A stretch of 57,037 nucleotides of DNA, the filler included, from Dugesia japonica (lineage: Eukaryota): assembly GCA_001938525.1 (NCBI GenBank). It is 5 parts of 5 records of this genome, joined end to end, with 100 filler letters (N's around TTAATTAATTAA, not from the genome) between each part and the next. Parts side by side here need not be neighbours in the genome. Positions count along the whole stretch, not along the records: positions 1 to 15,701 come from MQRL01598963.1; 4 more parts are not named here. One strand, given 5' to 3'. Of this stretch, positions 5,001 through 40,770 are shown piece after piece. Position 1 is the first letter of the stretch, and every line of letters starts with the position of its first letter. Made by a program: the position numbers and the translations under genes. The notes below the pieces were generated by a model that ran no database searches, was not told the origin of the DNA, and saw only the letters and a list, made by a program, of their open reading frames with translations.

Positions 5001-8000
5001 TTTATATTGGTTTTATAAAAAAAACATTTTTTTCACAATAAACATATTTAGAAAGCAAATATTTACATTTCTCAATCGAAAATATACGTTATTCATTTAT
5101 GAAGCCCACTTATATAAAAATGTATACATGCGCTTCTAATAACACAATGGTTAATAATATTAAAAATTGTTGGGCTTCGAAGCTTTTGATGTTGTTAATT
5201 CTTTCTATGATGGACATTTTCTTTCTTCTAACTGGTCTTCTGTATATATTTCTCATTTGGATAGATATCTCTTTAGGGTAGATACTCCAAAGCCGGCAGA
5301 AATTAGAAAATGCCTCGTGCATTGTTTTATCTACCCTGGGTCCATTCGGGACTATGCGGTTTCCCGTCTTATAGTTTCAATTTGAATGTTGGCTGCAGTT
5401 TCTTCAAGTCAACCTAAATATTCTTTGTAGAATAAATAAATATCCTAAATATCCTTAAACTTCTTTAAAATAAACACATAACTTTGCTGATGGCATTCAA
5501 ATTTTATTTACAACAAAGAATCGTCTATCAATTATCCAAATCGACTATTTTCTTGCCGCTTCTTCTATCTTCTTCTGTCTCCATCTTTGACACTTGACTG
5601 AGAGTTCAGACTGTCAATATCAAGGCTTTCTTTCAATCGGCGTAAGATTTAATGATGTCGGCCATTGCTCGAGTGGTTTGAGAGACTGCCAAGAGTGCGA
5701 GCATTTCTGCGTTGGAGTTTCAATATCTCAGCTTGCATCTTTTTATGTTTTACCAAGCACAAATTCTTTAACTCCGTTACCGAACATCCAAATGTGGTAT
5801 TGGTTGCTTTAGACACTAAATAATAGAATAGTTTATCTTGATTTATTAAATGTACATATCATTAATAGTGTATATCATTTAATGTGATATTACAATTTTA
5901 TTATTATTCGAATTAGTAATTAAAGAATTTCTATTTGATGCGGTTTAGAATTAGGATTTATCTAAAAGAAAACTCAACTGATACAACGGTAGAACACTGT
6001 ATTAATTTTACAATAAAATTTCAATCACACTACTGTTTCTTTAGTGTCTTTAGTCCTATCTGACGAGAGAAGAAAATGTCGGAGAGCAGTTTTAATACTT
6101 GACGAAAGCCGGTCTGATCTCTTTGAGTACTCTTCTGCTTCCAATTGGGTGTTTCGCATTTGGACGCTCAACTGCTGCTGCTGCTGTGAGAGAGCCGTTT
6201 AGTCGAAGAGCAACTTGATCAATTCCTTCTCTTTCTCCATCTGTCAGGTGAAGATTTCCGTAAGTTTTGATTTGAAACATTCTCCTTACTCATCGACTCG
6301 GATATGCAACTTTTTCAATTGGTCGGTTCTTTTGGTGAACATCTAATCTTGTAACTGTATGTTTTCTTTTAATGCGGTGATTTTAATATCCTTCTGCTGC
6401 AGTCTAACCTGAATGAATCACCAGGGATCGGTGTCGATTCCTTCCAGCCCCAGAAAATTCCAATAGTTGGGCATATCGCTGCTGGAATTGGAACTGGTAT
6501 TGTTAAACATAGTTAATTTCAACGTTACNATTTANTTAAGTTGAATAGATTTGTTATTTACTTCAAATACCTGATTGTTATTTTATTTACTTTAACATCA
6601 CTCAAGGGTATGGTAGTCCATCACACATCATCACAAGCGGAGCTGGAGTTTGGCATAATGTTTATTGATATTGCATTTATTATTCATTAATGTCCCTCCC
6701 GGTTATCGAGATTATTGATCATAGAAACTTGCTTTCCTTTATTAATTTATATTTGATTTGCCTCTTTACATTTCATGCGAGTCAAGCTCCCTTGGGATGA
6801 TAAATGATCTCTCCGTCCGTGCTCATAATTACTCTAAATCAAAATTGTAATTTAAACTTTTATCAATAAAGTAAATTAATCACAACTAAAATAATTCGAA
6901 CATAATTAAGAAAAATGCAATTAATACTAATGCAAATAATAAGAAGTCATAACACAACATCATAAAATTAAGCTGTGATATTTTTCTCTAAATATACACC
7001 GGTAATTTCATCAGTTATCACTCTTAATTTAATGTCAAGGAGAAGGGTTTAACCACCGTGCATCAATTGTGAAGACTTATTTCGACAATGATTTATCATA
7101 CTAACTCAATTCGTCGTTTATTTGCATAATCACTTGTGTCCAATCTATATTATCAACACTTAATTTCACTAACTCAATAACTAGATTTTTCACTCTTTAT
7201 TATCTATTGTAACCATGCGTCTTTCCGATTTTTCATTCATCTATATATATTGGCATTCCTCTTTATTTATAATCACTCAATACTCGTAATTCAACTTTAT
7301 ACAATGATGGATAATATCAAATAATGGTGACCCAGCGGGGCCGACTGATATCAATTCTCACATTGGTGCGCTTCTTCTCATTTGTTTCATATTATTCTAA
7401 TATCTAAATAAACAACTTATTTTCCTCAATTATAGATAATGGAATTTTGCTAAAAAGAAAAAATGCTACTTGCGATTTTTAACTATAAATCAACAAAACT
7501 ATATTGAAACTTTATTAAGAGAAATGATTTTCTGAAAAATGCCTTTTCTTTTATACTTCACTATATCGTCAAATATTGACCGATACAGTTAGTGTCCACT
7601 TCAGATTTCTGTTAATCCCAAGAATCATACGGTGTTCACCCGTAGATTCTACAGAAATGTCTCAATATGGACATGATTTTTTATTTTTGTAGTGTATTTA
7701 TGATTTCTACCAAGCTGAACCACTTAACAAAAAATAATATTTTTGTGAAAAATAATAATTTTCCCACAACTTTTAATAGTTTTATAAATAACGCTAACTA
7801 CAAGTAAATACATGTAAATATGAAAATATCAATACTAAATTCTTACATAAAGTCATCAGACCTTCTTGCACATATGACTTTCCTGTTTTAAATCCTCCTT
7901 GTTCATGATAAATAATAATATTTATTTAATAATAATAATTTTTATTATATTTATAGATAATAACAATAATTTCCCATTTTAATATTTTTTAAAAAATTAT

Positions 8001-9006
8001 AATAACACAATTCTTCTACTTTAATCTGATTAATATTTTAATAATTTATTATTTATAATGATGATGATGATTTATTTCACTTTGCTTTTCCTATCATATC
8101 TCTTTAAAATATCAAAATATTTTAAAATAATTAGTTGTTTTAATCTTTACCTTTCTCTCATTATTAGTAAGAAAAACGCTATCCTCATCAAATATTTATT
8201 TAAGGAAAAGTTTCTATAAATTGAAAAACTGAATTAGAATAGTTTTAATTTTCAATCAAATATACACAATAATTATTAAAATTATTTTCTTGAAATATTT
8301 TAAATTTCTAAAACTTTATAAATATTTTAATTGCGCATATAAATTTGAAATTAAACAATTTAAATATCATTCTCACACTCATTAATATAATTTTATTTTA
8401 ATATATGGATACTTTTAATACATTTATATCAATTATAAATAATGATATATATTCCTGGTTTTATTTACATTCTCCTTTTTGATAACTTAAATAATTTGAT
8501 TTATGATAATTTTAATAATTAAAAAAAATTTCAATAAATTAAATTTATTAAAAAACGAAAAATTAAAAAATTTAGAAAATTTAGAAAATTATGTATTTTT
8601 ATTAATTATAACATAAATAAAATATTAAACATTTATATAAAAAATATAAATAAAACATTAAATAAAACACAAATTCTAAAAATAAAATTTTAAATAATAA
8701 AAATAATATAATATAATAATTTTATATGTTTTCCTTTTCAATTGAATAAAATTAATATAATTCATGATAATTATAATTTAATAAACTTTTACAAATTGAA
8801 AGAATTTTTAAAAATTTAAAAATAAAATACTAATTAAATAATAAAATTTTTTAATGTATTTAGAATTTTGAGATTAAATTTAAAGTTAAATTTAAATTGG
8901 AATATAATTTAAATTTTATTAAAAAAATCTAATAAAATGTTAATAAAATATAAACAATTTTATAATAATGTTCTAATATTGGTTAAATGTTTGAAAAAGT
9001 CATAAT

Positions 9007-9040
9007 AATCCTAAAGAAGGCAAAAGTCGAAAATTTGAAT
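9007..9040 (+). ncRNA. Degenerate Penelope-type hammerhead motif (family B), probably inactive
   Basis: aatc CTAAAGA a GGC AAAA GTC GAAA AT TT gaat. Same layout as the copy at 26131, but the core CUGA is changed to CUAA. Confidence 0.4.
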
Positions 9041-12000
9041 ATCTATAAACAAAAATTTAAATTGATCGAAACTATTACTTGATTTAAACGAAATCTAAAA
9101 TTATAAAATCATTTAAACAAATATCAATGCATTANTTTACAAAGTTTCTTTTAAAAATAGGTAGTCACATTTCAATTAAATTTATCCTGTTTAAAATATA
9201 AAAAGTTTTTATAATTACCAGTAAAAATTATTTAAAATAAAAAATACAAAAAAATACAGTAAAAGTTTTACCAAAGAAATACATTATTAAAAATTATACT
9301 AAATGATTTATTATAATTACCAGTAAAAATTATTAAAAATAAAAAGTACAAAAAAATACATAAAAAATTATCAATTAAAAAATGTGTCGATTTGTCTGTG
9401 TCAATTTTTCATGTGTCGAATTGTCTGGTCACCGTATTTTTGTATCCTCTTACTAATTAAAGATATTGTAGTCTGAGATATGTGATGTGTGTTTCAAAAT
9501 ACATATATGCCTATTTTAAATGAAATATAATTTTTATATAAACTGATCGTACANAATGATGCAAGATATTCTAATCTGTTATNAATTAATGTTAACCTAA
9601 AAAAGTAAAATTTGATATCTTCATCGATCTTAACTTATAATACCCGGGCAACACTGAAGAATCAGTGGACATTGACTTCAATACAATGGAACAGGTTAAT
9701 ATGAAATCTGATGTTAAATCTGAAATCAATAATTAAAATGAAAATCATTAAATCAAAAGAGTTTCAATCAAACGTAAATTTGTAAAAACTGTGTATTTGC
9801 TTTTTTTTTATCATTTCTCTTCCATTTCCTTCTTTATTCTAGCAAGATCTTCTGAATCTAACGACGCTATGGTAACAAATTGTTCTTGATATCTTAGCAT
9901 CGTGTAAAAATGCAGTTATCAAATAAAACTTTGCTTAACGAGCTGATTAGTTCTCATTTAATTAATGAAAAAATAAGCAAATTAGCCCCTTTTTGTACTA
10001 CTTTCCTCATTTTAAAAACTTGAAAAACTATAACACTTGAACTTAACTAAAATTTAGAGACATCTCTCTTCATCTGAAAAACTGCAAAAACATTTATTCA
10101 CAAAACAAATGTCAATCGCTGACTGAAACTTTAACCATGCTGCTAGATCCATCTTCCTATCTGTTATGAATATTCTCAGAAAAAGTAAAAAAGAAAGAAA
10201 AGTCCGTCGGCGGAAATACTAATCAGAATAATCATTTTTGAGTAGTGTAAAACATTTATTAGAAATAAATTTACAATAAAACAAAAACATGATATAATAA
10301 AAGTAGAAATGTAAACTTTGATACAACTTTTAAAAAAATATAAAAATTTTTTATAAAAATATTTATGCATAGATTAAAACAAAGCAACTTTAATAAATTA
10401 TAGTACTATTCATAGAAAATTCTCAGAAATACAATAACAGACAAACTTAAGTATAATAAGCGATCAACAACTGTTTGATATAATAATAAATTGTCTTATG
10501 ATTGACCATGCAATTTCGAATTCATGTAAAAATACAATTTAGATGTACATTATTTTCTACAAATTCTTTTCAAAATACTTGAAACTCATATATTATTTTA
10601 TAAAATATTTACACGTTTTTCAACAAAATTTTAAAATAGTTGCAAATTTTACAATTACAATTGTTACAAGAATTATTGTTATTCCGAATTCCCAGTTACT
10701 TTATTGGTAAAAACGTATATCTTAGAGTCCCGAATTCCGCACTTCTAAATCTGATCACAATATTACAATAGGTACTTTTAGATTGTGAACAACAAAATTT
10801 GAACACCTTTAATTTAAAAATAATCATATTAATAATCTTTCTAAAATTTTTAACTCCCAACTCACCTTCTAATATTGTCGCCCCAAAATACAAAAATAGT
10901 ATAGTATTCATACTTTGTCTATTCTATATGTAGAATGATGTAACTGCTAAAATGATAATTTATTTTATTTTTGGGTGAATAAAAATCAGCAACAGAATTT
11001 AAATTTTTGATTAATATCGGTATTTTTAAAATGTTTTCACCATTTTTAGTAATTTACGATTTTAATCATAATTCTTTATTATTAATATAAGTAAAACTTG
11101 CAATTTTACCAAACATATAATCTCAACAAAATAATACAAATTGGAAGTTAAAACTAAAATAATTTCCCTGATAAATAATACAGAGTCTACAAATTTACAA
11201 TAATATTTTTTTACAATGCACCCATTCTTTCTTAAATTGATATGTTTACAGACAAAAATATAAAAATGATTTAAAAATCAATTACTTCGTACAATAATTT
11301 TATTAGTTTAATTGTGATTGTTAAAAATTTATCAACCTAATGTTATTCAGTGTTTAATAGCTGCTGGCTCTAATAACTAGGTTCAAATAAAGAAACTAAT
11401 AAATCATAATTTAATATCCCGAAATCGGTATTTTTAAAAGCAACGTATAAGCATGTGGTTCTCATACTGGAATCCAATAATTTTCATTTGAAATTTGTAT
11501 GATCTACACATTTAGAAGTTTTAAGCAAATTTGCGGTGATATAGAAACGTTTCAAAAAATCTGCATTATTCTAACACTAATATTATTCAACTATTTTATT
11601 TTCAGGCATTCAATAAAAATCTAATTTAAAATTTGTTAATAAAAAATTATAAAAAATAAAATAAATATTCATACAAAACTATAAATTCAATAAATTATTT
11701 ATTTTTGCATGTGAATTTGTTTATATATTATCAATTTTATTAATTTAATTTTGAATTCTAGTGTACCTAGTTTTTATATGCCAATAAATAAACCTACAAT
11801 TTCGGTTAGTATTATTATTATTATTATTAGTAGTAGTTTTTATTTATTTATTAAATTGAACATAAACTATTTAATTTATCAAACTATCTTAAAATCCTCA
11901 CGAAGAACAAGTTAACAATTTAATTAATAAAGAATTAGAATAAACCATTTTAGAGTATTTATTTTAACAGAAACCTGGGGAATTTTATAGATTCATAAAA

Positions 12001-12789
12001 CATCTCTTATACTAATTTGAAAAAATGTATTAAACGTTTGCGTAATGTTCTTCTGAAGGTGAATTTAAAAATTTATATTTTACAGTAATTTATAATATTA
12101 ACAAATTATATTTATCACTTGAAATAAGAAAAATTAAAGAATTAATTTTGATACAATAATTTTATTTGATTATTTATGCGGTTACTAAAATCGTGTTTTA
12201 ATTTAATTTATCGAATTATTTAAAAAATTTCAAAAAAATACGAAAAATAAAAATTTATTTGTACTTTTTGTCAGAAAAATAATTTGGATTAATCAATCAA
12301 TTACGATTGTAATTGATGAAAAATTGGTACAAAACAACGTTATTTTAATTTTTTATTTTTACTATTTTATTTTATTTATTATTTTATTTTGTGTAATTTA
12401 TTTTACATTTTTTCATCATCATCGCTATTTTCGTGGTTCCGTTTGAGTCGAGGCTGTGATTGAAGCGTCTTGACTATTCTGTACTTGTACTTGTAGACAT
12501 AACTCAATTAATTGCTCTGTGTGCTCTTTGCAGAGCTTCGCCACCTCGCTGTTTCGATTAGTCCCCCTTTGCTGCGCTAATCTCTAACGTATTGAAGGCA
12601 TCTTTACCCTTCAATTGAAGAAATATAAACAAGTATAAAGACTCTCCATGCATTCTCTGAATAGACGGTTGTTCTGCTGCTCCATCTCCCGACTCTCAAT
12701 CGTCCTCTCCCACAGCTGGTGGAGGTGAGTAGTTGTAGGCTCCGCAGTTGGAACACTTTACCAATCAACTATCTTGTTATTTCTTACTA

Positions 12790-13342
12790 TAATATACAAG
12801 AGTATTAATTAATTAGTTTAAGAAAAATTATCAGTTTTTTAATAGTTATCATAACTATTTAAATTATTTATTAAACGCCATGTTTTTATCAATGATAAAA
12901 TTATAAATGACAAAAAATCTCATAATTATTACATAACCAACACTGAACAATACGAAAAGTACTCTCAGTAAAAATATTAAATCATCATCTTGGTAGAATT
13001 GAATGAGAACTTCCTCTCAAACAGCTTCGTGTGGACAATATGCAGCATCTTCATAACTTCTGAGAATTCTCCAGGAAAATATTTGGCAACATTTTCATTT
13101 GCCGAGCAACCTTGTTCATAATCTTCACGTTATATAGTGCATTCCTTTTTTAAAGCCGAAAATTCCCTATTCCTTTCTCTAATATACAAGAGTATTAATT
13201 CATTTTAGTTTAAAAAAATGATCAGTTTTTTAATCGTTACCATAATTATTTAAATTATTTATAAAACGCCATGTTTTTATCAATGATAAAATTATAAATG
13301 ACAAATAATCTCATAATTAATGCATAACCAACACTGAACAAT
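12790..13342. repeat. ~160-bp direct duplication (12790-12951 and 13179-13342)
   Basis: Both copies read taatatacaagagtattaatt...cgccatgtttttatcaatgataaaattataaatgaca...cataaccaacactgaacaat with few differences. Confidence 0.9.
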
Positions 13343-14838
13343 CAACATTAAATTTTATGTTTAAATTCTTCGTCAACAGATCATATATTAATAAAATTCA
13401 TATTCGGTAAAGGCATTTCACCCCTGCTTTAGATTCATACTCATGATCATTTTGGTAATAACTGAAATTATAATAAACTATTATTAGATTATGGAGATTT
13501 TTTCCAAATCTAATGATTTTATCTTATGATTTTTTCAAAATTCCATATTTGTTTTTATGAATGGTGTGATTTTTCTGGAATTCGATTTTAATTTCGGCTT
13601 ACTAAATTAAGGAAATTTATTATTTAATATTTTCCAACTAAGTTTTCGTCTATCATAAACCTTTGGGGTTCTACAATAAAATTTTAACATAAAACGATAC
13701 CAGAAAAACATCTATAAAACAAATTATCACGAAATATTAATAATTAAATACACACAAGTACTCCGTTACATCAGTGAAAACCTGACTCATGTCAATGATC
13801 AACACTACTATTAGTTTAATTATTACTCGGAAAAATATAAGAGGAAAGACGCCATTGAATTTCAGCGAATTAGATGGATCGATAACAAAAATTATTTATC
13901 TATTCTCAACTGTCCACCTCATTATACTCGTTGGAATCTTAAATGCGTTAATTTAATTTAACTAAACCCAGCTAGGTGCTCAACATTGATTAATCTGCAA
14001 AATTTTTATTGGGATAATTCTTTTTTATATAGAAAAGAATTATATATTAAAGAATTTATTTCAAATCATATCATATCTTTCGTTGATTTTAATTAGTCTG
14101 GATTNNNNNNNNNNNNNNNNNNNNNNNNNNNNNNNNNNNNNNNNNNNNNNNNNNNNNNNNNNNNNNNNNNNNNNNNNNNNNNNNNNNNNNNNNNNNNNNN
14201 NNNNNNNNNNNNNNNNNNNNNNNNNNNNNNNNNNNNNNNNNNNNNNNAAATATTTGAAAGGGAAAATATCATATATAAATGAATTTCTTATCAAAAATTT
14301 ATAAAATCTGGAGGATAAATAATGTTATGTAATGGTTCAATTGGATTATTGGTTGAAATGTAATGAAATGGTAGGAAGTTTATGGTATTTAATATATATT
14401 TATTGAAATTCTAAGTGACTTAAAGAAAATTTACAAATATTTTAAAACTTAGTCTATATTTTGTATGTTGTAAGTAAAATTAATTAAAAATTTAATAAGA
14501 AAATCCAAGGAAATTTATAGAACTTAATGTATTAAGCGAGGGATTAAAATTAGAGGGTCTATTTTCAAAGGAATTTACTATATTAATTTAAAAATTTGGA
14601 ATAATTAACCGGTTTATTTGAATTTATTGTCTGTAAAGTATAGATTAAGTGTTAATATTTGAATTATATAGCTGGTTATATGGGAAAAGCGATAAACAGA
14701 TTAAACCATTAACTGCATAATCAATATGCAAATGATGATAACAAGTATTGTATATGTTAGTACGTGATGATAGTGAGAGTTGTATATGTTAAGAGTTGTT
14801 GTTAGCGGATATTGTATATGTTTAAATACCTGAGAATA

Positions 14839-15401
14839 TTAGCATTTTAAATCAAGATATTTTACTAAGTAATTATATGAATGAATCAGTGGGTCATAAA
14901 ACTTGTCACTATTGATTATATTTCTTAGCTTTAATCTTGCACAACAGTCGCATCTATTTGAACATCTGATTGTATCACATAAGTATGTTTTGATTATTGT
15001 ATGAACATTGATCTTTGTGTATTGGTTGATTTTGTACCAGTATACTTCTGGTGCCCAGTATACTGATTTATTCTTAAGATTTGGGAACTGTTAGTTTAAT
15101 ATTTCGAGAATTATTTCTAAAAACAATGAATTAATTAAATGATTCAATTACATTAATTATTACTTTTTTCTGATACATATTTATCTTCAATAAATTTCTC
15201 TATTTCTTTTCCTACAATTGGTTCAATAACTTTATCATTTGATATTCCTTCAGAATCATCATATTCAGTATAATCATCATCGTTATATTCAAAAACTATA
15301 TCAGCAGAACATGTTGACTCTAACCATTCCTTTTCTTCATCACTTTAATTCGACCATGTTTCCTGTTGTACTTCAAATTTTTCTTGAGTGTAATCATTCA
15401 T
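14839..15401 (-). pseudogene. Decayed gene of an unrecognised Cys-motif family (copy A), acidic N-terminus
   Basis: MNDYTQEKFEVQQETWSN*SDEEKEWLESTCSADIVFEYNDDDYTEYDD...EKFIEDKYVSEK, then a frameshift, then LFLEIILEILN*QFPNLKNKSVYWAPEVYWYKINQYTKINVHTIIKTYLCDTIRCSNRCDCCARLKLRNII. Aligns with the relic at 47351-47692. TATATAAA lies ~29 nt upstream of the ATG. Confidence 0.7.
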
Positions 15402-15648
15402 TTTCTGAAATAATACTAATTTAATTTAGTTTATATACGTCCTATATAATTAAATTCAACCAATGAAGTTTATCCTAGATTTTATTGGTAATTAATCACA
15501 GAAGAAACTATTAAATACTCTTGAGTATGTAATGATTTTCTAATTTAATAATTTTAACTAATTACTTTTATAATTAAATTTAAATAAATAATTATGTTTG
15601 TTTTAATTTATTATTCGTATGAAATGAAAAAACTTTCAAATTTATTTA

Positions 15649-15649
<1 letters not shown>

Positions 15650-15701
<52 letters not shown>
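15650..15701. repeat. (AAT)n microsatellite
   Basis: Perfect trinucleotide run into a gap. Similar runs occur at ~17353-17580, 19450-19516, 23335-23397, 26883-26938, 29987-30164, 54716-54775 and 56971-57037. Confidence 0.95.
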
Positions 15702-15801: not shown

Positions 15802-17353
15802 TGTTTAATCACCTTTGTTATGAAATATATTATTTTACAACTCAAGTGTTAATTTTTATGGAACCAAATAACAAATAACCAAATAAGATTCTGAGGAAAC
15901 TACTTACAATTATTATTATTTTTATTATTACTATTATTATTATTATTATATATTTATTTATTTATTATATGTTTATTATTTATATGATATTCTGAAAACA
16001 AATCAAATGATTTATGGTGTTTTACGTATCATTGATTTTAAATTAATAAATAAAAAATCGAATATTTATTTATGTAAATATTGTCTTATGAATTTAATAT
16101 CTAATATTCTTACTTTGTTACAAAAAAAGATGATTTCATCAAACATTAATATTTTTATTTTGAAAATTATCTTATTATTTTCGTATTATTTTCATAAAAT
16201 TTATTAATTTAATTTGGTTTTAATAAACCTAATAATAAACAATATAAACAAGTTGTGGGGGAAAAATGTATGTTGTTTATTGTAAATAAAGATAAGTCTC
16301 AAATTAATAGTTGTAATTTCTAAAAGAAATTATCTTTAGAAGATTTAGTTAACATAACTTTAATTTAGAGCAGATTTATTCAAAAATGAAATGAAATATT
16401 AATTAGAATTTATGAATTTATATTTTTATAAAATTTATTTGCTAATAAACATAAATGAAAGTTTAATAAATATAATAAAGTTTCCAAAATACTTCACTCA
16501 CCATTTTACGATTTTAAAAATGTAAAAAATTAAAACAAATAACATTTAAGACTGAAAAATCTTTCTTTAGTTTTAATTATTAATTTTAATTAATTTTTTT
16601 TCTTTTCTTCATTTAAATTTAAAATCTATTCTTCTATTTTGAATATATTTAACTATAATTATATTAATTGTTTTATAACCAAAGTATTATTGAGATAAAA
16701 ATGTTAAACTAAAAAAAACATGAAATATTTAAATGTAAAATTTATCTTGTCAGATTTAAACATATTTCAAAACAAATTCGAAATTAATATTATTTCCGAG
16801 AAACTAGAAATTTTCTTTGAAATAATTTGGAAATGAATAATTTATTTGGTTTCATTTGATAAGAATATTGATTGAATTATAACTGTATGTGTGTTAACAT
16901 ATCAAATATATTATATTGATTCTATTTGAGGAATCTGAAAAGAAATTTTGCTTCTATAATAGATTTGTTCAGAGATTTAAATCAACAAACAAATAACGTA
17001 AGGGATTTTAATTAAAAACATTTAAAAAACATCGTTTCTTGAAAAATTTTAAATTAAAATAAATTATAACCTAATCAAGTTTTTTATTTGAAAATCTAAG
17101 ATAAATAATCTTCTCGTGCAATTTGAGTTGGTGCGTTATTAACGTGTTTAAGACAAACAGCAATAAAATTAAACCAGTTGCTTTCTCTCTGAATACAACT
17201 TTTTCATTTTTTGATATGAATTTTAATGAAATTTTTACGAATACACTTGAAAACAGAAACATTTCTCTGAATTAAATTTATTTCTATTATTTCATATCTC
17301 CTTAGAATTTTGATAGAAATATTTAGATTTATTTTATATTAATATTGTAATCA

Positions 17354-17421
<68 letters not shown>

Positions 17422-19448
17422 NNNNNNNNNNNNNNNNNNNNNNNNNNNNNNNNNNNNNNNNNNNNNNNNNNNNNNNNNNNNNNNNNNNNNNNNNNNNNNN
17501 NNNNNNNNNNNNNNNNNNNNNNNNNNNNNNNNNNNNNNNNNNNNNNNNNNNNNNNNNNNNNNNNNNNNTTATTATTATTAACATTGGTATTAGTATTAAT
17601 ATTTGTATTTGTATTAATAACAGTCTAGATTATCTCAGTAAAAGTAAGAATGCGTATCCATACACAGTAAATCATTAAAGACTGGGAACCTAATTAGGGT
17701 GTGGGACATAATTTCCAAAATGTAAAACCCGGACAAAACGTCTCCAGAGTTGAATTTTTCATAAATATTCCAACCATCTCATAAAAATATTAAAAAGATA
17801 CAACAATAAATAAAAATAATAGAAATATTCAACTCTAGAGAAATTTAGATCTCGTTTTTCACTCGGAGACTTTTTGTTCAGGGACCTTTTGTCTGGTTAC
17901 TATCTAATTGATGTTATGATTTGAGATCCACAAATTACACAACCAATTTCAACATTCAATAACAACACACTATGAGTATCATCAATCCCATTTCTTCCAA
18001 ACAATTTGGATATGCTATTCGATATTTCATAACACTTTAGTACTAATACTTCTATATATTTTTAACTTCTATTATGCGTTTTATCGAATATAATATACGA
18101 ATCAATGTATCGCTTTTCTTGTTTGTTTCTAAAATCAATAGTTCTACAAACTTTATCTAAAATGATGAAATTTTGTGTGTATTATATTTTTTAGCTTTTT
18201 GCTTTTTTCTTTTATAAAAAATTCATTATTTAGTTTGAAATAATTCTGTTGGTGTAAAGTTTATTCAAGCCTACAAATTTGCTAAATTTATTTTCTAAAG
18301 CATTTCAAAATTTTCGACTTCATAATAAATTCTAATAGATAAAAAAAAATTTCTAAAAGTTCTGGAAAAATCTTTATTAACCAGATCAATTCTAGAAAAT
18401 ATATATTATTTCCTGTATTTGTTATTTAAAATGTTTAAAGAAAATCTAAAAATGTTAATTTTAGAAATTTTCCATCATTTTCATTGTATATTGTTTTTCT
18501 TCTCGACCTAATTCTCAATTTCAAATATTTTTCTTTAAACATAATTTTAAATGTTTTAAAATGCTTCATAAATTTATGACACGTGACATAATTCCTATTT
18601 CTAGTAAATTATAATCTAGCTTGATTCTACTCAATAAACCAATTATCTGCAATTTGGTTACTAGTTGGAATAGATTTCAAAATCTTCTTTATTTACTATG
18701 TTGAAAGTGAAACTAGCTAATCTTCATTTTCTGTTGATTTTCTGTCTGCTTTTCTATATTCTTACCTGACAAATTCGCAAATTGAGACTATTCCGATATA
18801 AATGCAGAGTATTGGTGACGAAAGTTTCGTTAATAGTAGATAATTACTTTTTGTTTTACAATTACAATTATAGCGATAATAATTGTTGGACTTAACCATT
18901 GATCGCATTTGAAATTTCATTGAATTAAAAGTTTCAATATCGAAACTTTTAATTCAATTAAATTTTATTTTACAGTTTAACGATGCATTATTTAATAATG
19001 AACAAAATAAACTTTTATAAAATAAAAGTTAATCATTATTTCTTTATAATTAATTAATTATTATATAGAAAATTTTAAAAGAATATTTTTAAAATAACCT
19101 AAAAATTCTTAGTTTCATGTTATTCTAAAGTATTAGAAATTTACCCTAGAAGTAAACTTCAAATTTTAATTATAAAAAACTTTAGTTTATTTTTTTTATA
19201 ATAAAAAATCGTAACCAGAAAAAGGAGTTGATTTATTGATTTACGATACTGGATAATTTAATAGTTATTAAATTTATCGATAATTTTAATATTTAGCGAT
19301 ATTAATAATTTCTTTTTACACTTTTTAATCTAATAACTTTCGTTTTAAAATTTAATTTAATAAAAATTAACTTTACCATTGATATGTGTATAATAAAATG
19401 TGTATATGTAAAATAAATTTTATTTAAATTGGTTTTTCAAAATATTTG

Positions 19449-19516
<68 letters not shown>

Positions 19517-19766
19517 NNNNNNNNNNNNNNNNNNNNNNNNNNNNNNNNNNNNNNNNNNNNNNNNNNNNNNNNNNNNNNNNNNNNNNNNNNNNNNNNNNNN
19601 NNNNNNNNNNNNNNNNNNNNNNNNNNNNNNNNNNNNNNNNNNNNNNNNNNNNNNNNNNNNNNNNNNNNNNNNNNNNNNNNNNNNNNNNNNNNNNNNNNNN
19701 NNNNNNNNNNNNNNNNNNNNNNNNNNNNNNNNNNNNNNNNNNNNNNNNNNNNNNNNNNNNNNNNNN

Positions 19767-22700
19767 CATTAAATTCAATAAATTTTTATTTATAACACAA
19801 AATTTCAAATCTTCAAATCTTCAAAAAACTCTGTTTTTAAGCAGCTGAATATTTAAACAAACATTTTAAATATTTTTAAAAATTCTTGAAATCTTTTATA
19901 ACGTTTTCTTTAAACTTTAAATTGCAATTTTCAATTTTTAATCCTTACACCCCTCTCGATTAAAAGAATTTTTTAAGCTTTTCTACGTTCTTTTCTAGCT
20001 CTTTTCCCTTTGTATTTCTTATACGATATCTTCTCTCATGTACCTTATCCGTGATCTTGTATGAACCAGCATATCTTTCATCGTCTTTTGTTCTAGTTTC
20101 TAGTTTTATCAATACTTCGTCTCCCACCTGAAATTGTCTTTTTATAGGTGTTTCTTCTATCGACTATTTCTCACCTTTTTGGCTGTTGAACCATTGTTCT
20201 CTGTGAATTCTTCTACCGAATACTTATTCTGCAGGTGATATCCCCAATGTCTTTTGCCTTGTCGCATTCATCATGTATTCAATCTCTGGTGTCCTGTTAC
20301 TCCAATTCTTTCTTTTATCTTCATCTGCGACAGCGTTAATACAGTCTCTAATTGTGCGAAATTGTCTCTCTATAATTTTGTTTGTATTTTGGTGATACGG
20401 ACTTGAAAAGTGTATTTCTATATTCATCGATTTCATAAGATTCTTGAAGTATTTTGATTCAAATGTCTTACTACTGTCTACGTGAACTTCTCTTGGTGCT
20501 CCAAATCTCAGGATCCATTTTTCCATTATCACATTTTTTTAATTGTCTCATCATCTTGCTTGCTGATTGCCGTTACGCTTACGTATCGACTGAATTGGTC
20601 TATTATTTTAAATATATATTTTCGTCTGTTCACAGTCTCTCAAAAAGACCCATATATATATCTTTTCAAATGGACAATTTGAGCTTAAGTTTAATGTTTT
20701 CTCTTTTGTTGCCACCGTATTAACTTTGTTCTTTTGGCACGCTTTACACTGTCTTATCACTTCTGTGATTGTCTTCTTCAGTTATCCGATGTTGTAGTTG
20801 CTGATTATATAGCTGATCATTTTCTCTGTCCCTGCATGTATTAACAATGTACCTATTTCTTTGATCATTGATATTCTTTTCTCTTTTGGAATCCAAATTT
20901 TCCCATCACTTGTTTTCACTATATTACTTTCGACTCTATATTTTGAATCCTTTCTTTCTTGAATATCTCGTTTGATTAGTTTGATTATTATCTTTATTTC
21001 CTCTTGCCATTTACATCTCTCTATCTTTATCATCTGATTTATCGGTCTTATTCTCATTTTCTCTATCTTTGGATTTTTATGTTGCATTTGACATTGAGTG
21101 CACGTTCCGCATTTCATTCTTGAGACCATATCTGCGTTTGTGTGTTTTTAGCCTTGTCCATATATTAGTTTAATGTCTAAGCTGCTAAGGTAATTCATTC
21201 ATGTCTGGAATTGAGGTGTTATCGGTTTGTTCGTTTTTTCATGAATTGGATGGCTTTGTGATCTATTCTCGTTATGAATTCTTTTCCATTAATACTTGTC
21301 TAAAGTGATTGCAGAAGTAGTATATTGCTAGTAATTCCTTCCGTGTGATACAGTAACTCTTTTCATGTGATGTCATTGCATGTGGGCCGTAAGCAATCAC
21401 TCTTTTTCTTTTGTAGTCATCATTTTGTGATAGGACCATTTCTAATGCGTCGAAGCTGATGTCAGTATCTAAAATAAATGTCTTCTTTATATCAGGGAAT
21501 CCTAAAATAGGTCCTTCTATCAGTGCTTGTTTCATTTCTGTGAAAGCTTTTTCACATCCATCTGATCATATTAGCTTTGTGCTGTTGCTTCCACATAATT
21601 CTTCTAGGGCTCTTGATTTCTTTGAATAATTTTTGATGAATCTTTTGTAATAATTGTATATTCGGAGGAAGCTTCTCAGGTTCTTTACGCATTTGGGTTT
21701 CTCAAAATTTTTGATAGCTTCGATTTTCATTGGATCTGTTTGAATTCATCCTTTATCTATTATGTGACCAAGAAATCTCACTTCTTTGCGTAATAGGTGA
21801 CATTTTTTTGGATTCACTCGCAACCCTGCCGTTTGTATCCGCTCTAATACCTGACCCAGAGTTAGATAATGTTCTTTTAGTCATTCTGAGAATATCATTA
21901 TGCCATCCATATACAACATTGCTCCATCTAAACCGTCCAATACTTTTTTCATTAGTTTTTGGGATGTTCCTGGGGCTGCTGCTATGCCGAATGGCATTCT
22001 TCTGAAGCAATATTGACCATTTTTTGTCGAAAAGACTGTTTTCTTTTGTGACTCTTTTTCTAACGGTACCTGGTAATGCGCGTTTTCCAAGTCTATGGTA
22101 CTGAACTATTTGGCTCTATACAAATTGTCTAACATTTCTTCTACGTTTGGAATCGGGAAGGCCTGTCGTTCCGTAACTGTATTTAGTTTCATGAAGTCCA
22201 ACCAAATACTCACATCTTTTTTTTCTTTCTTTCGGACGCATAGCAGTGATGTGTTCCACTGCGAATTATATTTTCTTATAATATTAGCGTCCGCTAAATT
22301 TTTTATGGACGTATCTATTTTTCTTCTAGATTCATGGGTTGTCTTCAAAGCTTCGTATTTATTTAGTTACCCTTTGTCACTATCTTGTGTTCTACCAACG
22401 TTGTGCATCCGACATCCCAGTTATCTGCCATGAATAATCCTCGATGTTTTACTATTACCTTTTCTTGAATCCATTATTAACTGATGTCTTCCTACTTGGT
22501 TTTGGGAATCTGTTATTATCGTCATTTCTTCTGTTTGATTCTTCTCTTCAGTTGTATTGTGCTATTTTGTTTCTTTATTCGTTATTCTGCTGACTTCTAT
22601 CATTAGTCCACTCACCTGTTTTCTCCAAATTAATATAACATTATTCTGTATGATGTCCATCCTTTGCGCATCTTGAATGTCTAATTTTGTCGCAATTCCT

Positions 22701-23124
22701 TTTTATATGATTTCCTGATCCGCATGCGTAACACATTTTTTTCTTTTCCGGACAATTTCTGCTGATATGACCTATTTTCTGACATGACCAACGTGTGATT
22801 TCTTTTTTAGCTTTACTTTGAGTTCCGGCAACTCCTGAGAAACGCCCTTTTGCCATGCCTCTTTTTACTGCATTCTGTAACTCTCCACCGTATTTATATT
22901 ATATTTTTCTTTCAGGTCCTCCTTTAGTTCATCATTTGTTTTTATTGTTTCAAATATCTCTTCCAAGTTATCTAGTTTGCTTCCTTTAATCTTTATTTGC
23001 ATTCTTATATTAGTTACTGATAAACTTTCTGAAAAATCCATTAAATTCAATAAATTTTTATTTATAACACAAAATTTCAAAACTCTGTTTTTAAAAGCTG
23101 AATATTTAAACAAACATTTTAAAT
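19767..23124 (-). mobile_element. Decayed Ty3/Gypsy LTR retrotransposon with internal deletions
   Basis: Gag CCHC knuckles (CYACGSGNHIKRNC; 22641-22856). RT motifs LDFMKLN..AFPIPNVEEMLDNL, RMPFGIAAAPGT and LYMDG (degenerate YxDD). RNase H FILDTD..VLSQ..ELLAI. Integrase WILRFGAPREVHVD..SSPYHQNTN..ERQFRT. PPT GAGAGGGG is followed by TGTAAGG, the LTR start at 19949. The same LTR sequence occurs at 19767-19870 and 23039-23124. No protease or PBS was recognised. Confidence 0.92.
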
Positions 23125-23334
23125 NNNNNNNNNNNNNNNNNNNNNNNNNNNNNNNNNNNNNNNNNNNNNNNNNNNNNNNNNNNNNNNNNNNNNNNNNNNN
23201 NNNNNNNNNNNNNNNNNNNNNNNNNNNNNNNNNNNNNNNNNNNNNNNNNNNNNNNNNNNNNNNNNNNNNNNNNNNNNNNNNNNNNNNNNNNNNNNNNNNN
23301 NNNNNNNNNNNNNNNNNNNNNNNNNNNNNNNNNN

Positions 23335-23401
<67 letters not shown>

Positions 23402-24969
23402 AACAAAAGCAGTAATAATAAATAATTAATATGAAAATTAAAGTTATCATTAAATATTTATTATAAAAGAAAAATTGAAATTATCATTAAGATCATTTGT
23501 AAGAAGACATGAAATCTTTATGAGGATTAAAAGTAAAAACATTCCATTAAAAAAATACTTAATCAATGTTAATTAATAAAATGCAATTATGGAAAAGTCT
23601 GTTTAGCAAAAGCAAGCAATATTAGATTTTTCTTATGAGATTCAGCAGGTAATTAGTTTACCTACTTTTAAGCTATCAATTTAAATAATCTAATTAAAAT
23701 TTTTAACAGTTAGTAAATATGGTTTAATTCAAATAATTAATTTTTCAATGAAATTTGTTTTTGATTGAAAAATGTCAACTTTATTTATTTTAAGTATGAT
23801 AAAAGAAAAGAAATGTTAATAAAGCTAATTTGATTTTATTTTTCAGTCAATTTGATTTTTAAATTAATCATTATATTTATATAATCTATTTATTTCATTT
23901 ATTTATTATTTGTTCGTTTATTTTTTTTTATATATATACATTTGTTCTATTTAGTTAATTAATTAATTTATAATTTATTTAAATTTATCTACCTATTTAA
24001 TTATAACAATGTTTTTCCAATACATTCAAAATATTAAAATAAAATATTATTTTCTTAAATTTCAGTTACGATTAAATAATTAATATTTATTCGTAAATTG
24101 ATCTTCATGTTTAAACTCGAAAATTTTGATTGAATCAAACTTAGGTAATTTTGTATTAATAATAATATTAATAATATTATATTTTAATAATATTAATAAT
24201 ATTATATTTTAATAATAATTTAAAACGTTTTATTAGGTTTTCTCTAGATTATCAGAAGTTTAAAATAAATATATTTAAAATAATAAATGAATCGGAATTC
24301 GTTGATATTCTCTTCACAATGAAATTCTTTCAGACAAATTTCATAAATTATAATATTTTAAAATAATTAAAGATACTTGAGAATTCTTCACGATAATTTA
24401 AAATGTAATATTTTATTCATTTGAAATTATATGGAAATGACAGAAATTTTGACTGGTTTTGTTTAAATTGAAAAACTTTTACTTGTAAGATATGAAATTT
24501 CATCAGAACGAAATAAATTTAAATTGACTAGAATAGAATAGATTTTTTGGTAAATACCAACATAAATTTCTTCTATTATTGTCATAAATGGCATTAACTA
24601 GAATTGTAGGAATCTTTTTAACTAAACCCTTTTTAGTCATTTTTAAAATGTCTTCAAGTATGAATTTAGTTTTGAAATTTTTTCATTGTTTCAATTATTT
24701 TATTTTTTTACAAAACATATCTTGTAATTTTAACAAGTTGACTGTCCGCTACGACTATATTTATATATACCGCAGTCACTTATTACGAGTTTACTCGTAT
24801 ATTGTTATTTACTACAAACCAATATGCGGGTATCAGCATGCATTTTTTTATACACAAACTAAGAAATAAAACCGGCGCATTTTTTAAAACATTTAAAATA
24901 TTATATAAGAAAACACTAAAGACTGAATTTTATTAGTTAGACAGGATTGTCAGCCAATTGTTCAAAGAA

Positions 24970-25830
24970 TTGCATTTATCTGGCCTCAGAGTTAGATAGT
25001 TTAAGTTTGGCCGAGCGTTTAAATGAATATTGCGTACAGTCAGTTTCTTGTTTTTATAACTTGATATATTATAAGGACATTAAACCAAGAAATCTTACAA
25101 GAGACGAATTATGTAAATTGACAGGATGTTTAGATTTTAGCATAGCTTTAGAGAAAAAGAAATAGATGGTGGTTCAAAATAGCTACGAATTTTTATTTTC
25201 TAAAAAAGAGCAACAATATTAATTTTAAATTTAAAAAATGAAAAACATCACATATTTTGTGCTTCTGTCCTAAAATTATGAAATTAGTTATCGCAAGACA
25301 TAACCAGATTTTATATATATATATATATATATATGATATGGAAATTTAATGATGAAAGAAAAAGATATGAAGATAATAAGAAAAGGCATCCCAGTATTTT
25401 GTCATCACCATCTGTAATCGGGCATTTCAAATAATAGATCACCTATTATGTATTATGATTTATTTATATTTCTTCTATAATAGATCTATTTAAGAAGAAA
25501 TACAAAGTCGTTGATGAAAAACGTCCATTTGAATAAAATTTAAGCTATGAAGGTGCAAATAATAAGAATAAAGAAATATATAATGAAATTATGAGAAAAA
25601 CAGAAAAATCACTAGGTTCAATATGACAACTCTCGCTGCACACCTTTATCATTGGAATATATGGGTCTTGGTATATGAAAAAAAGAAAATTATTATAATC
25701 AATAGAATCTATACTACCAAAGTAGATGAAATTTCATATGATTGTGGATTTTCTGCAAAAAAAGAGCTCTCGGAAAATGTGGAAAATTTTTTAACTTATG
25801 CAGAAAAAGATAAGAAATATTAGGAATCTA
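24970..25830 (+). pseudogene. Possible highly degraded protein kinase fragments
   Basis: IYLASELDSLSLAERL...IYYKDIKPRNL..CKL..DFSIA resembles kinase subdomains V-VII, and YTTKVDEISYDC resembles subdomain IX. Heavily eroded. Confidence 0.35.
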
Positions 25831-26130
25831 GAAAAGAAAAAATAGATTAGAAAAAAGAGAAAACCAAGTTTGTGAATGGTCGGTTGCGTTCCAATAAGCA
25901 AATAATAATCCAATGAGTCAGTGTAACGTTGTCTAGGACCTCAGTTTTATGTTTTGTTTAATAAAACTTTGTCAACTTGTATATTTTCCAATTACAGATA
26001 TTGCGAAGATAGTTGTTGGATTTAACAATGGATCGCATTTGAGATTTTATTAGATTTAAAGCTTCGATCAAAATTTTATTTTGTTTTTTTTAATTCTTTT
26101 TAGCTAGTTATCCGAATAGGTAAGAAGGTA

Positions 26131-26164
26131 ATTCCTGAAGAAGACGATAGTCGAAAATTTGGAT
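26131..26164 (+). ncRNA. Penelope-type minimal hammerhead ribozyme motif (family B)
   Basis: attc CTGAAGA a GAC GATA GTC GAAA AT TT ggat. Conserved core, 3-bp stem II, loopless palindromic AATT stem III and a weak 4-bp stem I. Confidence 0.55.
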
Positions 26165-26876
26165 AGCTACTAAAAAATAAATAAAAAGAAACAAAACAAC
26201 ATTTTGATTGAACCTTTTAATTTAATGAAAACTAGTAAAATGTTGTTTACTTCCGACCAATAGGCTAGCATCAGCACACACATTTTTTATTAAAAAATCA
26301 AACTGAGAAATAATTCGAACTCATTTTTTATAACTATTATAGAGAAATAAGTTATATTATATTAGAAAGTATGACAAATAATATCGAGTTCTTTTAAATA
26401 AAACTAAATCTTCAGAATATTAAGAATAATATAATGAAAAGTAAATGTTTTTAAGGTCAATTATCCAAAATAAAATTACAATAATTAATAAATTTTTATG
26501 GATAACTTTGATAATATTGTTCTTAACTAATATTGTCTGTGATTTATAGTGATTTATGATTATATTCTATATATTTAAAAAATGAGTTTTCAAATTTATT
26601 TGATCTACTGCACCATCTTTAGAAATAATTTGAATTGTTCTAGCTCACTGACAGTTTAGAGGCGGCGACATCGCGTTCATAAAATTCTAGATTAAACTAA
26701 ACGTGCTGATAGGCGGATGTTAATATAATATATATTTGAACTCATATCGTAAAGAGTGGAACAAACATTAAATTTCCTAATTGTATAAAATTTAATCTTA
26801 GTATTCCTTTATAATGTAATTTTAAATTATTATTATTATCATACTGAAATTTTTATTATTAATAAAATTATTTATT

Positions 26877-26938
<62 letters not shown>

Positions 26939-27524
26939 NNNNNNNNNNNNNNNNNNNNNNNNNNNNNNNNNNNNNNNNNNNNTTAATTAATTAANNNNNN
27001 NNNNNNNNNNNNNNNNNNNNNNNNNNNNNNNNNNNNNNACTATTAAACATTTAAACACTAACGGCCGGAAAACCGGTATTTACATAATATCGGCATAAGT
27101 GCGAAAGTTTATAATGTCAATCAAACTAATTAATGCATTTGATTGGACAATAAAAATATCTTTAAAAGCCAATAAAATATTAAACCACGCCTTTTTTATC
27201 CTAGAAAAAGTCTAGAATGCATTTTCCTAGAAATTTAATGTTAAATATTGCACTTGTTAACCTATTCACAATACGACAAATAATCTTGATTTTTGGTACA
27301 TAAAAATGCATTATATATTGTTTTATAGTATTATTGTAATGTAAGTATTTTATTTCAAAAATATAAAACAATATTATTGGGCTTTTTGTTTCTACAGATC
27401 AAAATATAGGACAAAATATTACGTATTTTTGTTACGGCCGTTCTATTAGACTAATTAGTAATTTCCATTAGAATTATTACAGTATATTATATTAAAAGAG
27501 TGGTGTATTACTTTTATTGTATAA

Positions 27525-29440: not shown

Positions 29441-29485
29441 TTTTGTGATATATTTCGACGGATCAACCGTCATCATCAGACAAAA
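29441..29485 (-). ncRNA. Minimal type I hammerhead ribozyme (Penelope-type, family A)
   Basis: Minus strand reads UUUUGU CUGAUGA U GACGG UUGAU CCGUC GAAA UAUA UC^ACAAAA. Intact core, 6-bp stem I, 5-bp stem II, palindromic stem III and AUC cleavage triplet. Confidence 0.85.
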
Positions 29486-29986: not shown

Positions 29987-30048
<62 letters not shown>

Positions 30049-30098: not shown

Positions 30099-30164
<66 letters not shown>

Positions 30165-37945: not shown

Positions 37946-38849
37946 AAATTTTTAAAAAAATACAATTATTTAAAAACTGGGTACAAATATTTATCAGTTC
38001 ATTGAAATTAATTTAATTAAATTTCAGTTGATAGATTTGAGAAAGTTAGATTAAAATTATTTGTACAAAAATTACAGAAATAAGAAATTACGAAAGTAAA
38101 CAATTTTTTAAATATATAAATATAGATTTAATTTTTATTTTTCCACGATAGAGAATTTTTATAACGAAAAATTCGAAAACAAAATTATTTTTATGAAATT
38201 ATATTTTTTAAATTTTCAAAATCTTCAAATTAATTTTCACTGGTATTTTTTTGTTAATTATAATTTACGTCGAATACATGAATAGTTTAATCAAAAAAAA
38301 TATTTATATATAACAATAAAAAATATATGAAATATTAATTAACCAGAATAATGAAAAATATAAATATCATATTCTTTTTATAAATAAAAGAAAAAATATA
38401 AAATCGTATTTAAATTTTCAAGAAGATTTTTTGTAATCTTAATGAGATTGTTTTATAAATCTTTCCTTGGATATCATATTCCTTTATTATCATTTTCTTT
38501 TAATTAATTATTTGGATTGATATTTCCAACAATTAATGATATTGAAGTACATAAATTACTGGAACATTCATCCAAATAGAAATTATATTTAACTATAATT
38601 ATTTGTAATTATATAATATATTTTTGTAAGAGCCAAAAAAAATCAAATCAAATGGAAATAATATGAATTATTTTAATNNNNNNNNNNNNNNNNNNNNNNN
38701 NNNNNNNNNNNNNNNNNNNNNTTAATTAATTAANNNNNNNNNNNNNNNNNNNNNNNNNNNNNNNNNNNNNNNNNNNNTTTTACTTTCAATAAAGTTCATA
38801 AAAATTATTGCCAAAATAGGAGACAAGTTGTTACCCATTGCCAGACCAC

Positions 38850-39113
38850 TTAAGACATAATAATTGTAATGTAATTTATATCTCTCAAACTTATTATGAC
38901 TTGGATATAAATAGTATAAGAAATAATAGCAACTGTTTTATATTTTTCAAATTAGGAAAACGTGATAAAGATAATGTTTGTCATGATCTTTTTAGTAACA
39001 TTTTTAATAATAAAGAAGAATATGATTTTGAAACTAATCATCATTGGAAAACAAAATACAATTATTTTTTTCTAGATAAAGAAAAGGAAGTATTGATGGA
39101 CTCAATAATTTAA
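38850..39113 (+). CDS. A32/FtsK-like packaging ATPase, C-terminal part
   Basis: LRHNNCNVIYISQTYYDLDINSIRNNSNCFIFFK..W..KYNYFFLD shows the RH / SQ / IRxN motifs. Walker A/B are not in view. Confidence 0.85.
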   Translation, partial: LRHNNCNVIYISQTYYDLDINSIRNNSNCFIFFKLGKRDKDNVCHDLFSNIFNNKEEYDFETNHHWKTKYNYFFLDKEKEVLMDSII

Positions 39114-39122
39114 TTAAAAGAA

Positions 39123-39575
39123 ATGGTTAACACCACAGAAAAAGAATTAGTAGAATTAATATTAGTAGAATTACTATAAAGAAAATAGTAACAAGTGTAA
39201 ATCAATAAAAATAAATGGTAAAAATAATTGGATAGGTAAAAAGGTAAAGGAACAACTTTTAAAAGAACATCATTATTAGCTTTAATACCAGGAATTTTAG
39301 CAGGAATAGTTGCAGCAGGAACTGTAGCTGCAGGTGTAGCCGGTGCAGCCACTGGGATTGCAAAAGCAGTTACTAATGCACGTGAAGCAGCTAATGAGAA
39401 AAAGAAGGGGGAATTATTAGGTAAACAATTGGGATCGAGTTTATATTTAAATCCTTATCAAGGAGCAACTATTCATAAATAATTAAAATCAATTGGGGGA
39501 GAGGGAATAAGAAATTTAAACAAGGAGTAGAAATTAAGTGGGAAGGTGAAGGATTATATTTAAATCCTTTTAATA
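39123..39575 (+). pseudogene. Gly/Ala-rich Polinton virion core-like protein (adenovirus pVII/pX-like by analogy)
   Basis: KGKG..LLALIPGILAGIVAAGTVAAGVAGAATGIAKAVTNARE..LGSSLYLNPY..EGEGLYLNPF. The ORF track reports only its antisense shadow. Confidence 0.7.
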
Positions 39576-39635
39576 TAAATAATAAATGATATTGAATAAA
39601 GATATTGGAAAATAAAGATATTGGAATATAAAAAA

Positions 39636-40770
39636 TGAATTTTAAACTTATCTTCTCTTAAACTTATCTCAACAATGATATTGATAATGATTATGTTATT
39701 CATGATTACAATGATGAGGATATTAATAATTCATACAATTTTTCTTGAATACAAATAAATTTTAATAAAAAATGGACACAGGATGCAAGATAGAATAAAA
39801 ATTTAAGTGAACAAATTAAGGCTCAAGAAAAGTATAATAAATTAATTCTTGATCAGGTTGGTTTTGAATTTGATATTCAAAATTTACAAAGAATACATGG
39901 AATACAAGGTATTTCAAATAAACTAGAACAAGGATTAATACAAGGTGAACAAGGATTACGAGGTTTAGAACAAGGTATTCAACAAGGTTTTCCCACTAAC
40001 CAGTTGGGTAGACTGGAACAAACTTTACCTAAATTAGTTGAACAAGGAATAGAACAAGTTATTCTTAAAAATCAAGGTTTAGTTAAACAAGGTTTTCAAC
40101 AAGGTTTAGAACAAGGAATACCTGAACCTTTTTTAGAGAACCTAGAGAACCTATTGAGGAACTTGAAGATATTACTAAAATAAAATATGACAATTTAAAA
40201 TTTAAAAAAGAAAATTATAAAATTACAAGAAAGTATGATTTACCTCCTAGTTTAACTCCTAATATTCAATATGATGATGATGATGAATTTGATAATTTAA
40301 TAATAGGTGGATCTATTATATTTTTAAAACAAAGATTATTACATAGTAGTTTCAAGTATTATTTCTTTGTTAATAATAAAAAAGAAATTCTATATAATGG
40401 GGAAGTATTTAAATTAATGTATGGATATGATTCAAATGATTTTGAAGCAAGAGAAAGTTATTTAAGAAATTTTGAAATTAATTTTCCAAACAATAGTAAT
40501 TATGTTAAAGTTTGTAAAACAAGTGAAATTTTTGATACTGGATTTAAAAAATTAAAGCCAGCACCAGAATATAAAGAAATCGAAACTAGTAGGAAAGGAG
40601 ATGGGAACCCAATAAAATTATTTGAACAACTTGTAAAAATAACTTCAGCTATTAAAGCAGGACATGATAATCTTAAAGAAGAATTTAAAAAGATTATTGA
40701 TAAACTTTTACAAAAAAAAATAATTGATGATGATAAATATTCTAGGTTGATTAAAAAATATATTAAATAA
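39636..40770 (+). pseudogene. Polinton protein with EQG repeats and a conserved C-terminal helical motif
   Basis: One frame with three stops to ~40140, then a frameshift into the frame of ORF 40417-40770. It ends KGDGNPIKLFEQLVKITSAIKAGHDNLKEEFKKIIDKLLQKKII, resembling the Polinton 'P.EL..RL..L.....AG' motif. Confidence 0.6.

Follow-up and report, generated by a model that had tools for sequence, protein, structure and literature searches.

The stretch of DNA which we have analysed, called here the window, has 57,037 nt from Dugesia japonica (GenBank assembly GCA_001938525.1). It joins five scaffolds (1-15701, 15802-26938, 27039-38677, 38778-47875 and 47976-57037), separated by four linkers N44-TTAATTAATTAA-N44. 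The window has ~25% GC and contains TAA microsatellites. We have found in it two copies of a small gene, copy A in the first scaffold and copy B in the fourth. Their peptides lie where the first-pass annotation had placed them, and the linkers bear out its statement that the two copies are on different scaffolds. Copy B comes shortly after a decayed Polinton-like element. The features of both loci are given in Table 1.

Table 1. Positions of the features found around copies A and B, counted along the window
Feature	Position	Strand	Remarks
Three 32-nt tandem units, core TTGTATATGTT	14733..14828	.	directly after copy A stop codon
Copy A exon 2	14839..15116	-	conserved helical domain, YW-x-PE, CxxxCxxC
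Copy A predicted intron	15117..15163	-	47 nt, GT-AG, phase 1, 15% GC
Copy A exon 1	15164..15401	-	ATG, 79 codons + 1 nt; in-frame TAA 15347-15345
TATATAAA box, putative Pol II promoter	15430..15437	-	starts 36 nt upstream of copy A ATG
Rest of decayed Polinton/adintovirus-like element	38778..44136	+	long frames listed in the next six lines
ATPase-like C-terminus	38820	+	at scaffold start; PHROG terminase E 1e-3, no Pfam match
Hydrophobic pX-like frame	39240	+	presumed resemblance
Minor-capsid-like frame	40849-41535	+	presumed resemblance
Adenain-like protease	41557-41967	+	Peptidase_C5 E 0.036, stop read as X
Frames of unknown function	39794, 40126, 42330, 42790, 43195	+	in Polinton-like element
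Decayed protein-primed DNA polymerase B (pPolB), N-terminal C2H2 zinc fingers	44137..47270	+	breaks off ~80 nt before copy B
Copy B exon 1	47351..47417	+	ATG, 22 codons + 1 nt
Copy B predicted intron	47418..47456	+	39 nt, GT-AG, phase 1, 10% GC, two in-frame stops inside
Copy B exon 2	47457..47692	+	conserved domain, open to TAA 47690-47692

The Pfam matches found among 24 frames of the window belong to mobile DNA: Gypsy integrase and zinc knuckle, mariner HTH and pPolB with C2H2 fingers. Thirty further exon-like frames gave nothing convincing in Pfam. Away from the Polinton scaffold the recognisable coding remnants are Gypsy and mariner. There are two decayed remnants of Gypsy-type LTR retrotransposons, 19963-22898 (-) and 32367-32940 (-), the first of them with the integrase and zinc-knuckle matches. 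Several decayed pieces of mariner transposase are found in 35356-38013 (HTH_48, E 0.001), where we take other motifs to be of mariner type as well. Three more regions have what we assume to be resemblances: 5113-5376 (-) to a piece of CACTA-like transposase, 12428-12770 (-) to a gag-like region, in which the zinc knuckle is broken, and 27500-28300 (+) to a non-LTR restriction-like endonuclease; Pfam gives no support for these three frames. Other repeats are a tandem duplication of ~620 nt with 94.6% identity (49374-50675) and pieces of 80-100 nt, 71-80% identical, dispersed over three scaffolds (18854-18945, 24793-24890, 25984-26334, 29801-29879 and 48225-48371), which are perhaps a MITE family. 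A weak Pfam match to the N-terminus of a nepovirus coat protein in 52462-52728 (+), with an E of 0.008 which does not reach the cut-off, is probably due to chance.

The two copies and their surroundings

Copies A and B are homologous, as a hand alignment had suggested. With tblastn they share 29 residues over 74 columns, in which a single gap of 2 aa is opened (E 1.7e-11). BLASTP with the stop-free frames gives 21/58, that is 36% identity, with an E of 1e-12, so that the pairwise match on which the first-pass annotation had staked its proposal is significant; the overall identity is 32-36%. The local score of 129 is reached by none of 5,000 shuffles (mean 27.4, maximum 61), and outside the windows which overlap A or B the best score is 53 (2,274 six-frame windows). 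An ungapped block of 58 codons has nucleotide identities of 0.45, 0.71 and 0.41 in codon positions 1, 2 and 3, versus 0.29 expected from composition. Position 2 is the most conserved: selection has therefore acted on the protein, and the family has been under protein-level constraint in the past. At 36% identity synonymous sites are close to being saturated. A chance match in AT-rich DNA is ruled out by BLASTP, by the shuffles, by the codon-position identities and by three outside homologues, which we will describe below. A profile of five members detects no third copy in the window. If scaffolds as short as these are typical, the two copies, found in 55 kb once the N's are left out, would amount to ~36 per Mb (95% interval 4-131).

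Copy A has 171 codons and two in-frame stops, one in exon 1 and the other in exon 2 (15093-15091), with a terminal TAA at 14841-14839. It has decayed at about the same rate as pPolB. Its acidic N-terminus, already recognised in the first-pass annotation, has 32% D/E over 79 codons. The same is true of the TATA box, which had been placed ~29 nt from the ATG: 28 nt are found between TATATAAA and the ATG. This octamer has a background of 0.26 per kb per strand in the window, and as a promoter of copy A it is suggestive only. The 11-nt core of the tandem units which follow copy A is found in these three places only within the window; a one-base variant is present at 47848 in the opposite strand, so that downstream of copy B it has the orientation of the units which follow A. 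Between the 3' flanks of A and B there is no significant similarity (292/1,000 shuffles reach the score). In the 1.45-kb contig of copy A no Polinton gene was seen, and near the copy there is no recognisable transposase, Rep or capsid frame. A penton-like remnant in its flank was rejected as chance, since 107/954 background windows score as high. We also rejected copy A as the first exon of a downstream host gene, as the region there shows what we take to be gag-like remnants.

Copy B is an open two-exon gene model with 100 codons in all. Its exon 1 has neither the long acidic N-terminus of A nor a TATA box. T content is 0.52-0.64 across the gap of ~80 nt which separates its ATG from the broken-off pPolB. 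Copy B is co-oriented with the long frames of the element, which has a probability of 1 in 2 by chance. Over its about 1,040 codons pPolB has 9 stops and about 5 changes of frame; at this rate of lesions we estimate that ~27% of 100-codon stretches would be intact, so that the openness of B is uninformative. Exon 1 of copy B also has an LxxMYD stretch in 47381-47410 (+), which we take to match the ligand pattern of the Rb pocket AB groove; the pattern has 9 matches in 110,364 six-frame positions. LxxMYD is absent from copy A and is not compatible with P0003, one of the outside homologues.

The first-pass annotation had mentioned Polintons as a possible source of the gene, and one of the copies, B, does adjoin a Polinton-like element. 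Its pPolB matches PF03175 with an E of 3.7e-4 (profile 230-406 of 468), which falls short of the curated cut-off. The region starts with two C2H2 zinc fingers (44137-44436; zf-met E 1.5e-9) and stops before a D-T-D-type motif, which is found in none of the plus-strand frames of 46501-47875. Searches with pPolB gave no match in phage genomes and 0/463 in GTDB. The ATPase, pX and minor-capsid labels in Table 1 are putative. The minor-capsid-like frame has no PDB or Pfam match (model pLDDT 32) and the adenain-like frame has no PDB match. Two of the Polinton frames contain 12-nt coding repeats, 43750-43813 and 39969-40116 (+), which give Gln-Gly-rich peptide repeats. No TIR, integrase or major capsid is found in the 9.1-kb scaffold (38778-47875), whose end falls within the element or at its edge. 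GC3 is 0.13 in exon 1 of A and 0.18 in exon 2 of B, both inside the Polinton range of 0.08-0.19. In exon 2 of A it is 0.31 and in exon 1 of B, with its 22 codons, 0.32; these two values are outside that range and like those of the Gypsy and mariner remnants (0.22-0.39).

A predicted short intron

Copy A had been considered intronless in the first-pass annotation, and hence virus-like. We do not find it so: its two parts are in different frames, and the predicted 47-nt phase-1 GT-AG intron which joins them accounts for the frame change. The argument for a viral nature is thus lost, as the gene carries a conserved short predicted spliceosomal intron. In copy B two stops are found just 5' of the conserved part, in its frame. 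We enumerated the GT-AG pairs, 25 in A and 40 in B, and compared the best 8 of each: a single solution has equal phase and a homologous acceptor in both copies, 15163-15117 in A and 47418-47456 in B. The GC content of these predicted introns (Table 1) compares with 25-31% in the exons. When exon 1 is anchored at the junction, its last 16 residues match in A and B (P 0.007); in a free local alignment the similarity of the two exons 1 is not significant (2,304/5,000 shuffles reach the score). The intron sequences of A and B are not similar (467/2,000 shuffles reach the score). The beginnings LFLE and FLLE of the peptides in the first-pass annotation turn out to be intron read-through.

A third member of the family, the database protein P0003, has at its N-terminus a stretch formed only by F, L, I, V, N and Y, and then the conserved acceptor. 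Back-translated, it serves as an independent test of the prediction: the best of its 8 candidate GT donors gives a 43-nt intron where A and B have theirs, and in the upstream frame 6/8 exon-1 residues are compatible with A or B. This fit is equalled by 0.28% of 20,000 shuffles and by 30/17,936 9-mers of the window (P about 0.002); P becomes about 0.02 once the 8 donors are allowed for. As P0003 fits an intron at the same site, the sequences argue strongly for one predicted intron common to A, B and P0003. Such an intron would be older than the split of these three distant members.

Other solutions were discarded. Alternative introns of 89 and 104 nt in copy A would remove a segment which is conserved in B, P0001 and P0003. 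A ciliate-type code for the stops of A was tried with scaffold 4 only, where table 6 fails to join the Polinton frames cleanly. Because the intron is short, ORF callers miss the gene and protein databases hold just three truncated calls.

Relatives, conserved domain and function

These three calls, P0001, P0002 and P0003, are the relatives found when a profile of A and B is compared with 1.84 billion representative proteins (E 4e-6 to 3e-4). They are unnamed singletons on contigs of 1.1-2.0 kb and are probably partial. The first-pass annotation supposed a multi-copy gene, and three more relatives are available. The members of the family are 25-48% identical: A is 48% identical to P0001, versus 32-36% to B. 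Invariant in the five members are Y-W, a downstream Y and one C. The Cys motif which had been proposed is real but not universal: CxxxCxxC is present in 3/5 members and CxxC in 4/5, and P0001 keeps just one Cys of the cluster.

No known host or transposon domain is assigned to the family in Pfam, PHROGs and PDB searches. In Pfam we found no match for A, B or A exon 1; the five members give only two unrelated DUFs, one member each, with E 0.03 and 0.12. None of them matches a Pfam HTH family at E up to 10, and up to the same limit the first member has no Pfam match. PHROGs gave none for the conserved domain, and PDB sequences no assignment for the family. The five-member profile finds just the known three among 135 candidates of similar length and 0/4,964 proteins of 180-2000 aa (which is weak evidence). 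A word-index protein search with B gave one candidate and none scored; among the 1.84 billion representatives and in the word-index searches no named or annotated protein matches. ESM Atlas gave no assignment for B and P0003, phage genomes gave one match only (E 0.3), GTDB genomes 0/78 pattern matches and Rfam 0 matches. No description of this family was found in the literature by a text search, which is blind to unnamed proteins. The proposal of a multi-copy family of proteins which had escaped annotation, lacks any known domain and is placed in transposon-rich DNA is thus supported.

The AlphaFold model of B exon 2 has four helices, with pLDDT 57 and pTM 0.38. Two of them, 20-31 and 35-46, are central helices with an HTH-like spacing in 5/5 members, by a pattern drawn after seeing the alignment. 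With this low-confidence model a BFVD fold search gave no match at E up to 0.001, and the best VIA-align Z of 6.4 is what unspecific helical bundles commonly give. In these fold searches with the model (pLDDT 57) HTH families were not prominent either; the outcome does not imply a novel fold.

As to function, the protein could be a small nuclear regulator, with an acidic region for activation or partner binding, an HTH-like core and an optional zinc site, which would act on transcription of the element or of the host; this assignment is doubtful. The Cys cluster may bind zinc with an outside ligand, and would be dispensable in P0001. It is a good deal more speculative, and in our opinion improbable, that the family represents a new class of spliced Polinton/adintovirus accessory genes which code for an E1A-like early regulator. 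Such a regulator would combine an acidic region with a motif of the Rb-groove type and a helical domain which binds zinc; its gene, whose intron would be retained by members of only 25-48% identity, would exist in many copies, and Mavericks would carry it from one invertebrate host to another.

Origin of the gene and comparison with known systems

We read A and B as paralogues, distant from each other, of a eukaryotic gene which is real, undescribed and lineage-restricted, with two exons and one short predicted phase-1 intron. With somewhat less than even confidence, we take it for a cargo or accessory gene, with intron, of Polinton/Maverick elements. Its carriage as cargo, which we infer from a single locus, is plausible: one of the two window copies is adjacent to a Polinton-like element, at a rearrangement junction. 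The orientation of B, the decay of A at the pace of pPolB and two of the four GC3 values speak for it; the other two GC3 values and the flank of A speak against it. The gene would code for a protein of 100-170 aa, with a variable acidic N-terminus followed by a domain of about four helices with YW-x-PE and, mostly, the Cys cluster. Transcription by Pol II and splicing would both depend on the host. A deletion would have placed B against the stump of pPolB, and decaying copies would be scattered as the elements break up.

It is possible, but unlikely, that the gene comes from some other mobile element which was inserted in pPolB. It could then be the accessory gene of a DNA transposon with two genes, or belong to a non-autonomous element or to a small DNA virus, and the 32-nt repeats would be subterminal binding sites or an origin. 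The abrupt end of pPolB before the ATG of B and the rise of T in the gap are as at an insertion edge, and copy A, followed by its three repeats, has a TATA box of its own, with no Polinton gene in its vicinity. The number of copies per Mb, if these short scaffolds are typical, points in the same direction. However the 3' flanks of A and B are not similar, no convincing terminal inverted repeats are found around either copy, and the frames near A include no recognisable transposase, Rep or capsid.

Improbable as well, in our estimate, is a lineage-specific host multigene family with pseudogenes, in which B would have come to lie next to the remains of the Polinton through chance or a rearrangement of the locus. 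Annotated host families are usually present in the databases which we have searched, and no named protein matches; a host gene is recognised in none of the 30 exon-like frames, and A is as broken as the neighbouring mobile DNA. Yet the conserved spliceosomal intron and the TATA promoter, both predicted, are host-like, and old paralogues would fit with A being closer to P0001 than to B.

A chance match is ruled out above, and it is very improbable that the gene is a decayed piece of a family already known, be it RNase T2, C2H2 zinc finger or Tc1-type HTH: RNase T2 clusters come first in an Atlas feature search of P0003 (0.79 and 0.77) and C2H2 fingers in a PDB profile search (E 1.9 and 3.6), but by the calibration of the tools these scores are at chance level, none of the five members matches PF00445 or any Pfam entry other than the two unrelated DUFs, and what we take to be the catalytic His/Lys motif of RNase T2 is absent from the family alignment.

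Polinton/Maverick cargo beyond the core genes has been characterised in few animal groups. If the Polinton reading is right, a new family of intron-bearing cargo would extend it to another lineage and would be a marker for tracing transfer. If it is instead a host family or the passenger of another transposon, it is still an undescribed family of small proteins.

The scaffold of copy B is like the Polinton/Maverick elements described in PMC6431247 by having pPolB, a candidate adenain-like protease and further co-oriented frames. It differs from them by being decayed and incomplete: integrase, major capsid and TIRs are not on the 9.1-kb scaffold. In a planarian Polintons are described as piRNA targets (PMC8532177). 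Introns can enter Polinton-like elements after integration, according to PMC11957031; unlike that case, the predicted intron found here would predate the split of three distant members.

There is also some likeness to the Oncoid and Adintoc proteins of adintoviruses (PMC8502044): our protein is likewise small, is encoded close to PolB and has paired Cys and an acidic region. Adintoc proteins are described there as conserved adintovirus proteins without known relatives. In the examined part of the supplement text of PMC8502044 the name Adintoc is present, and the motifs of our family and planarian names are absent. The LxxMYD of copy B exon 1 is close to the Rb-groove motif in the CR1 of Oncoids, (DEN)(LIMV)xx(LM)(FY) in PMC8502044; in its exact form this motif is absent from A and B and has one match, inside the helical core of P0002. 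Unlike the Oncoids, as given in that paper, our family has no LxCxE (0/5 members) and a single CxxC in 4/5 members, with no pair of CxxC. Oncoids are typically upstream of PolB (PMC8502044), whereas copy B is downstream.

The WASP and KRMA cargo of nematode Mavericks (10.1101/2022.07.12.499685) has several of the features found here: it bears introns, it is lineage-restricted and many of its members lie away from the elements; in our family the introns are predicted. In nematode Mavericks, as reported in the same work, core genes are intronless, a point in favour of the host origin discussed above, and cargo genes have introns. Only part of a cargo family stays with the elements, as is the case for krma, with 121/532 copies on them (10.1101/2022.07.12.499685). 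Our family differs from WASP and KRMA in that it consists of one small helical protein, with a single Polinton-adjacent locus which is downstream of pPolB. The nematode cargo is reported to move between species and to seed selfish toxin-antidote elements (10.1101/2022.07.12.499685).
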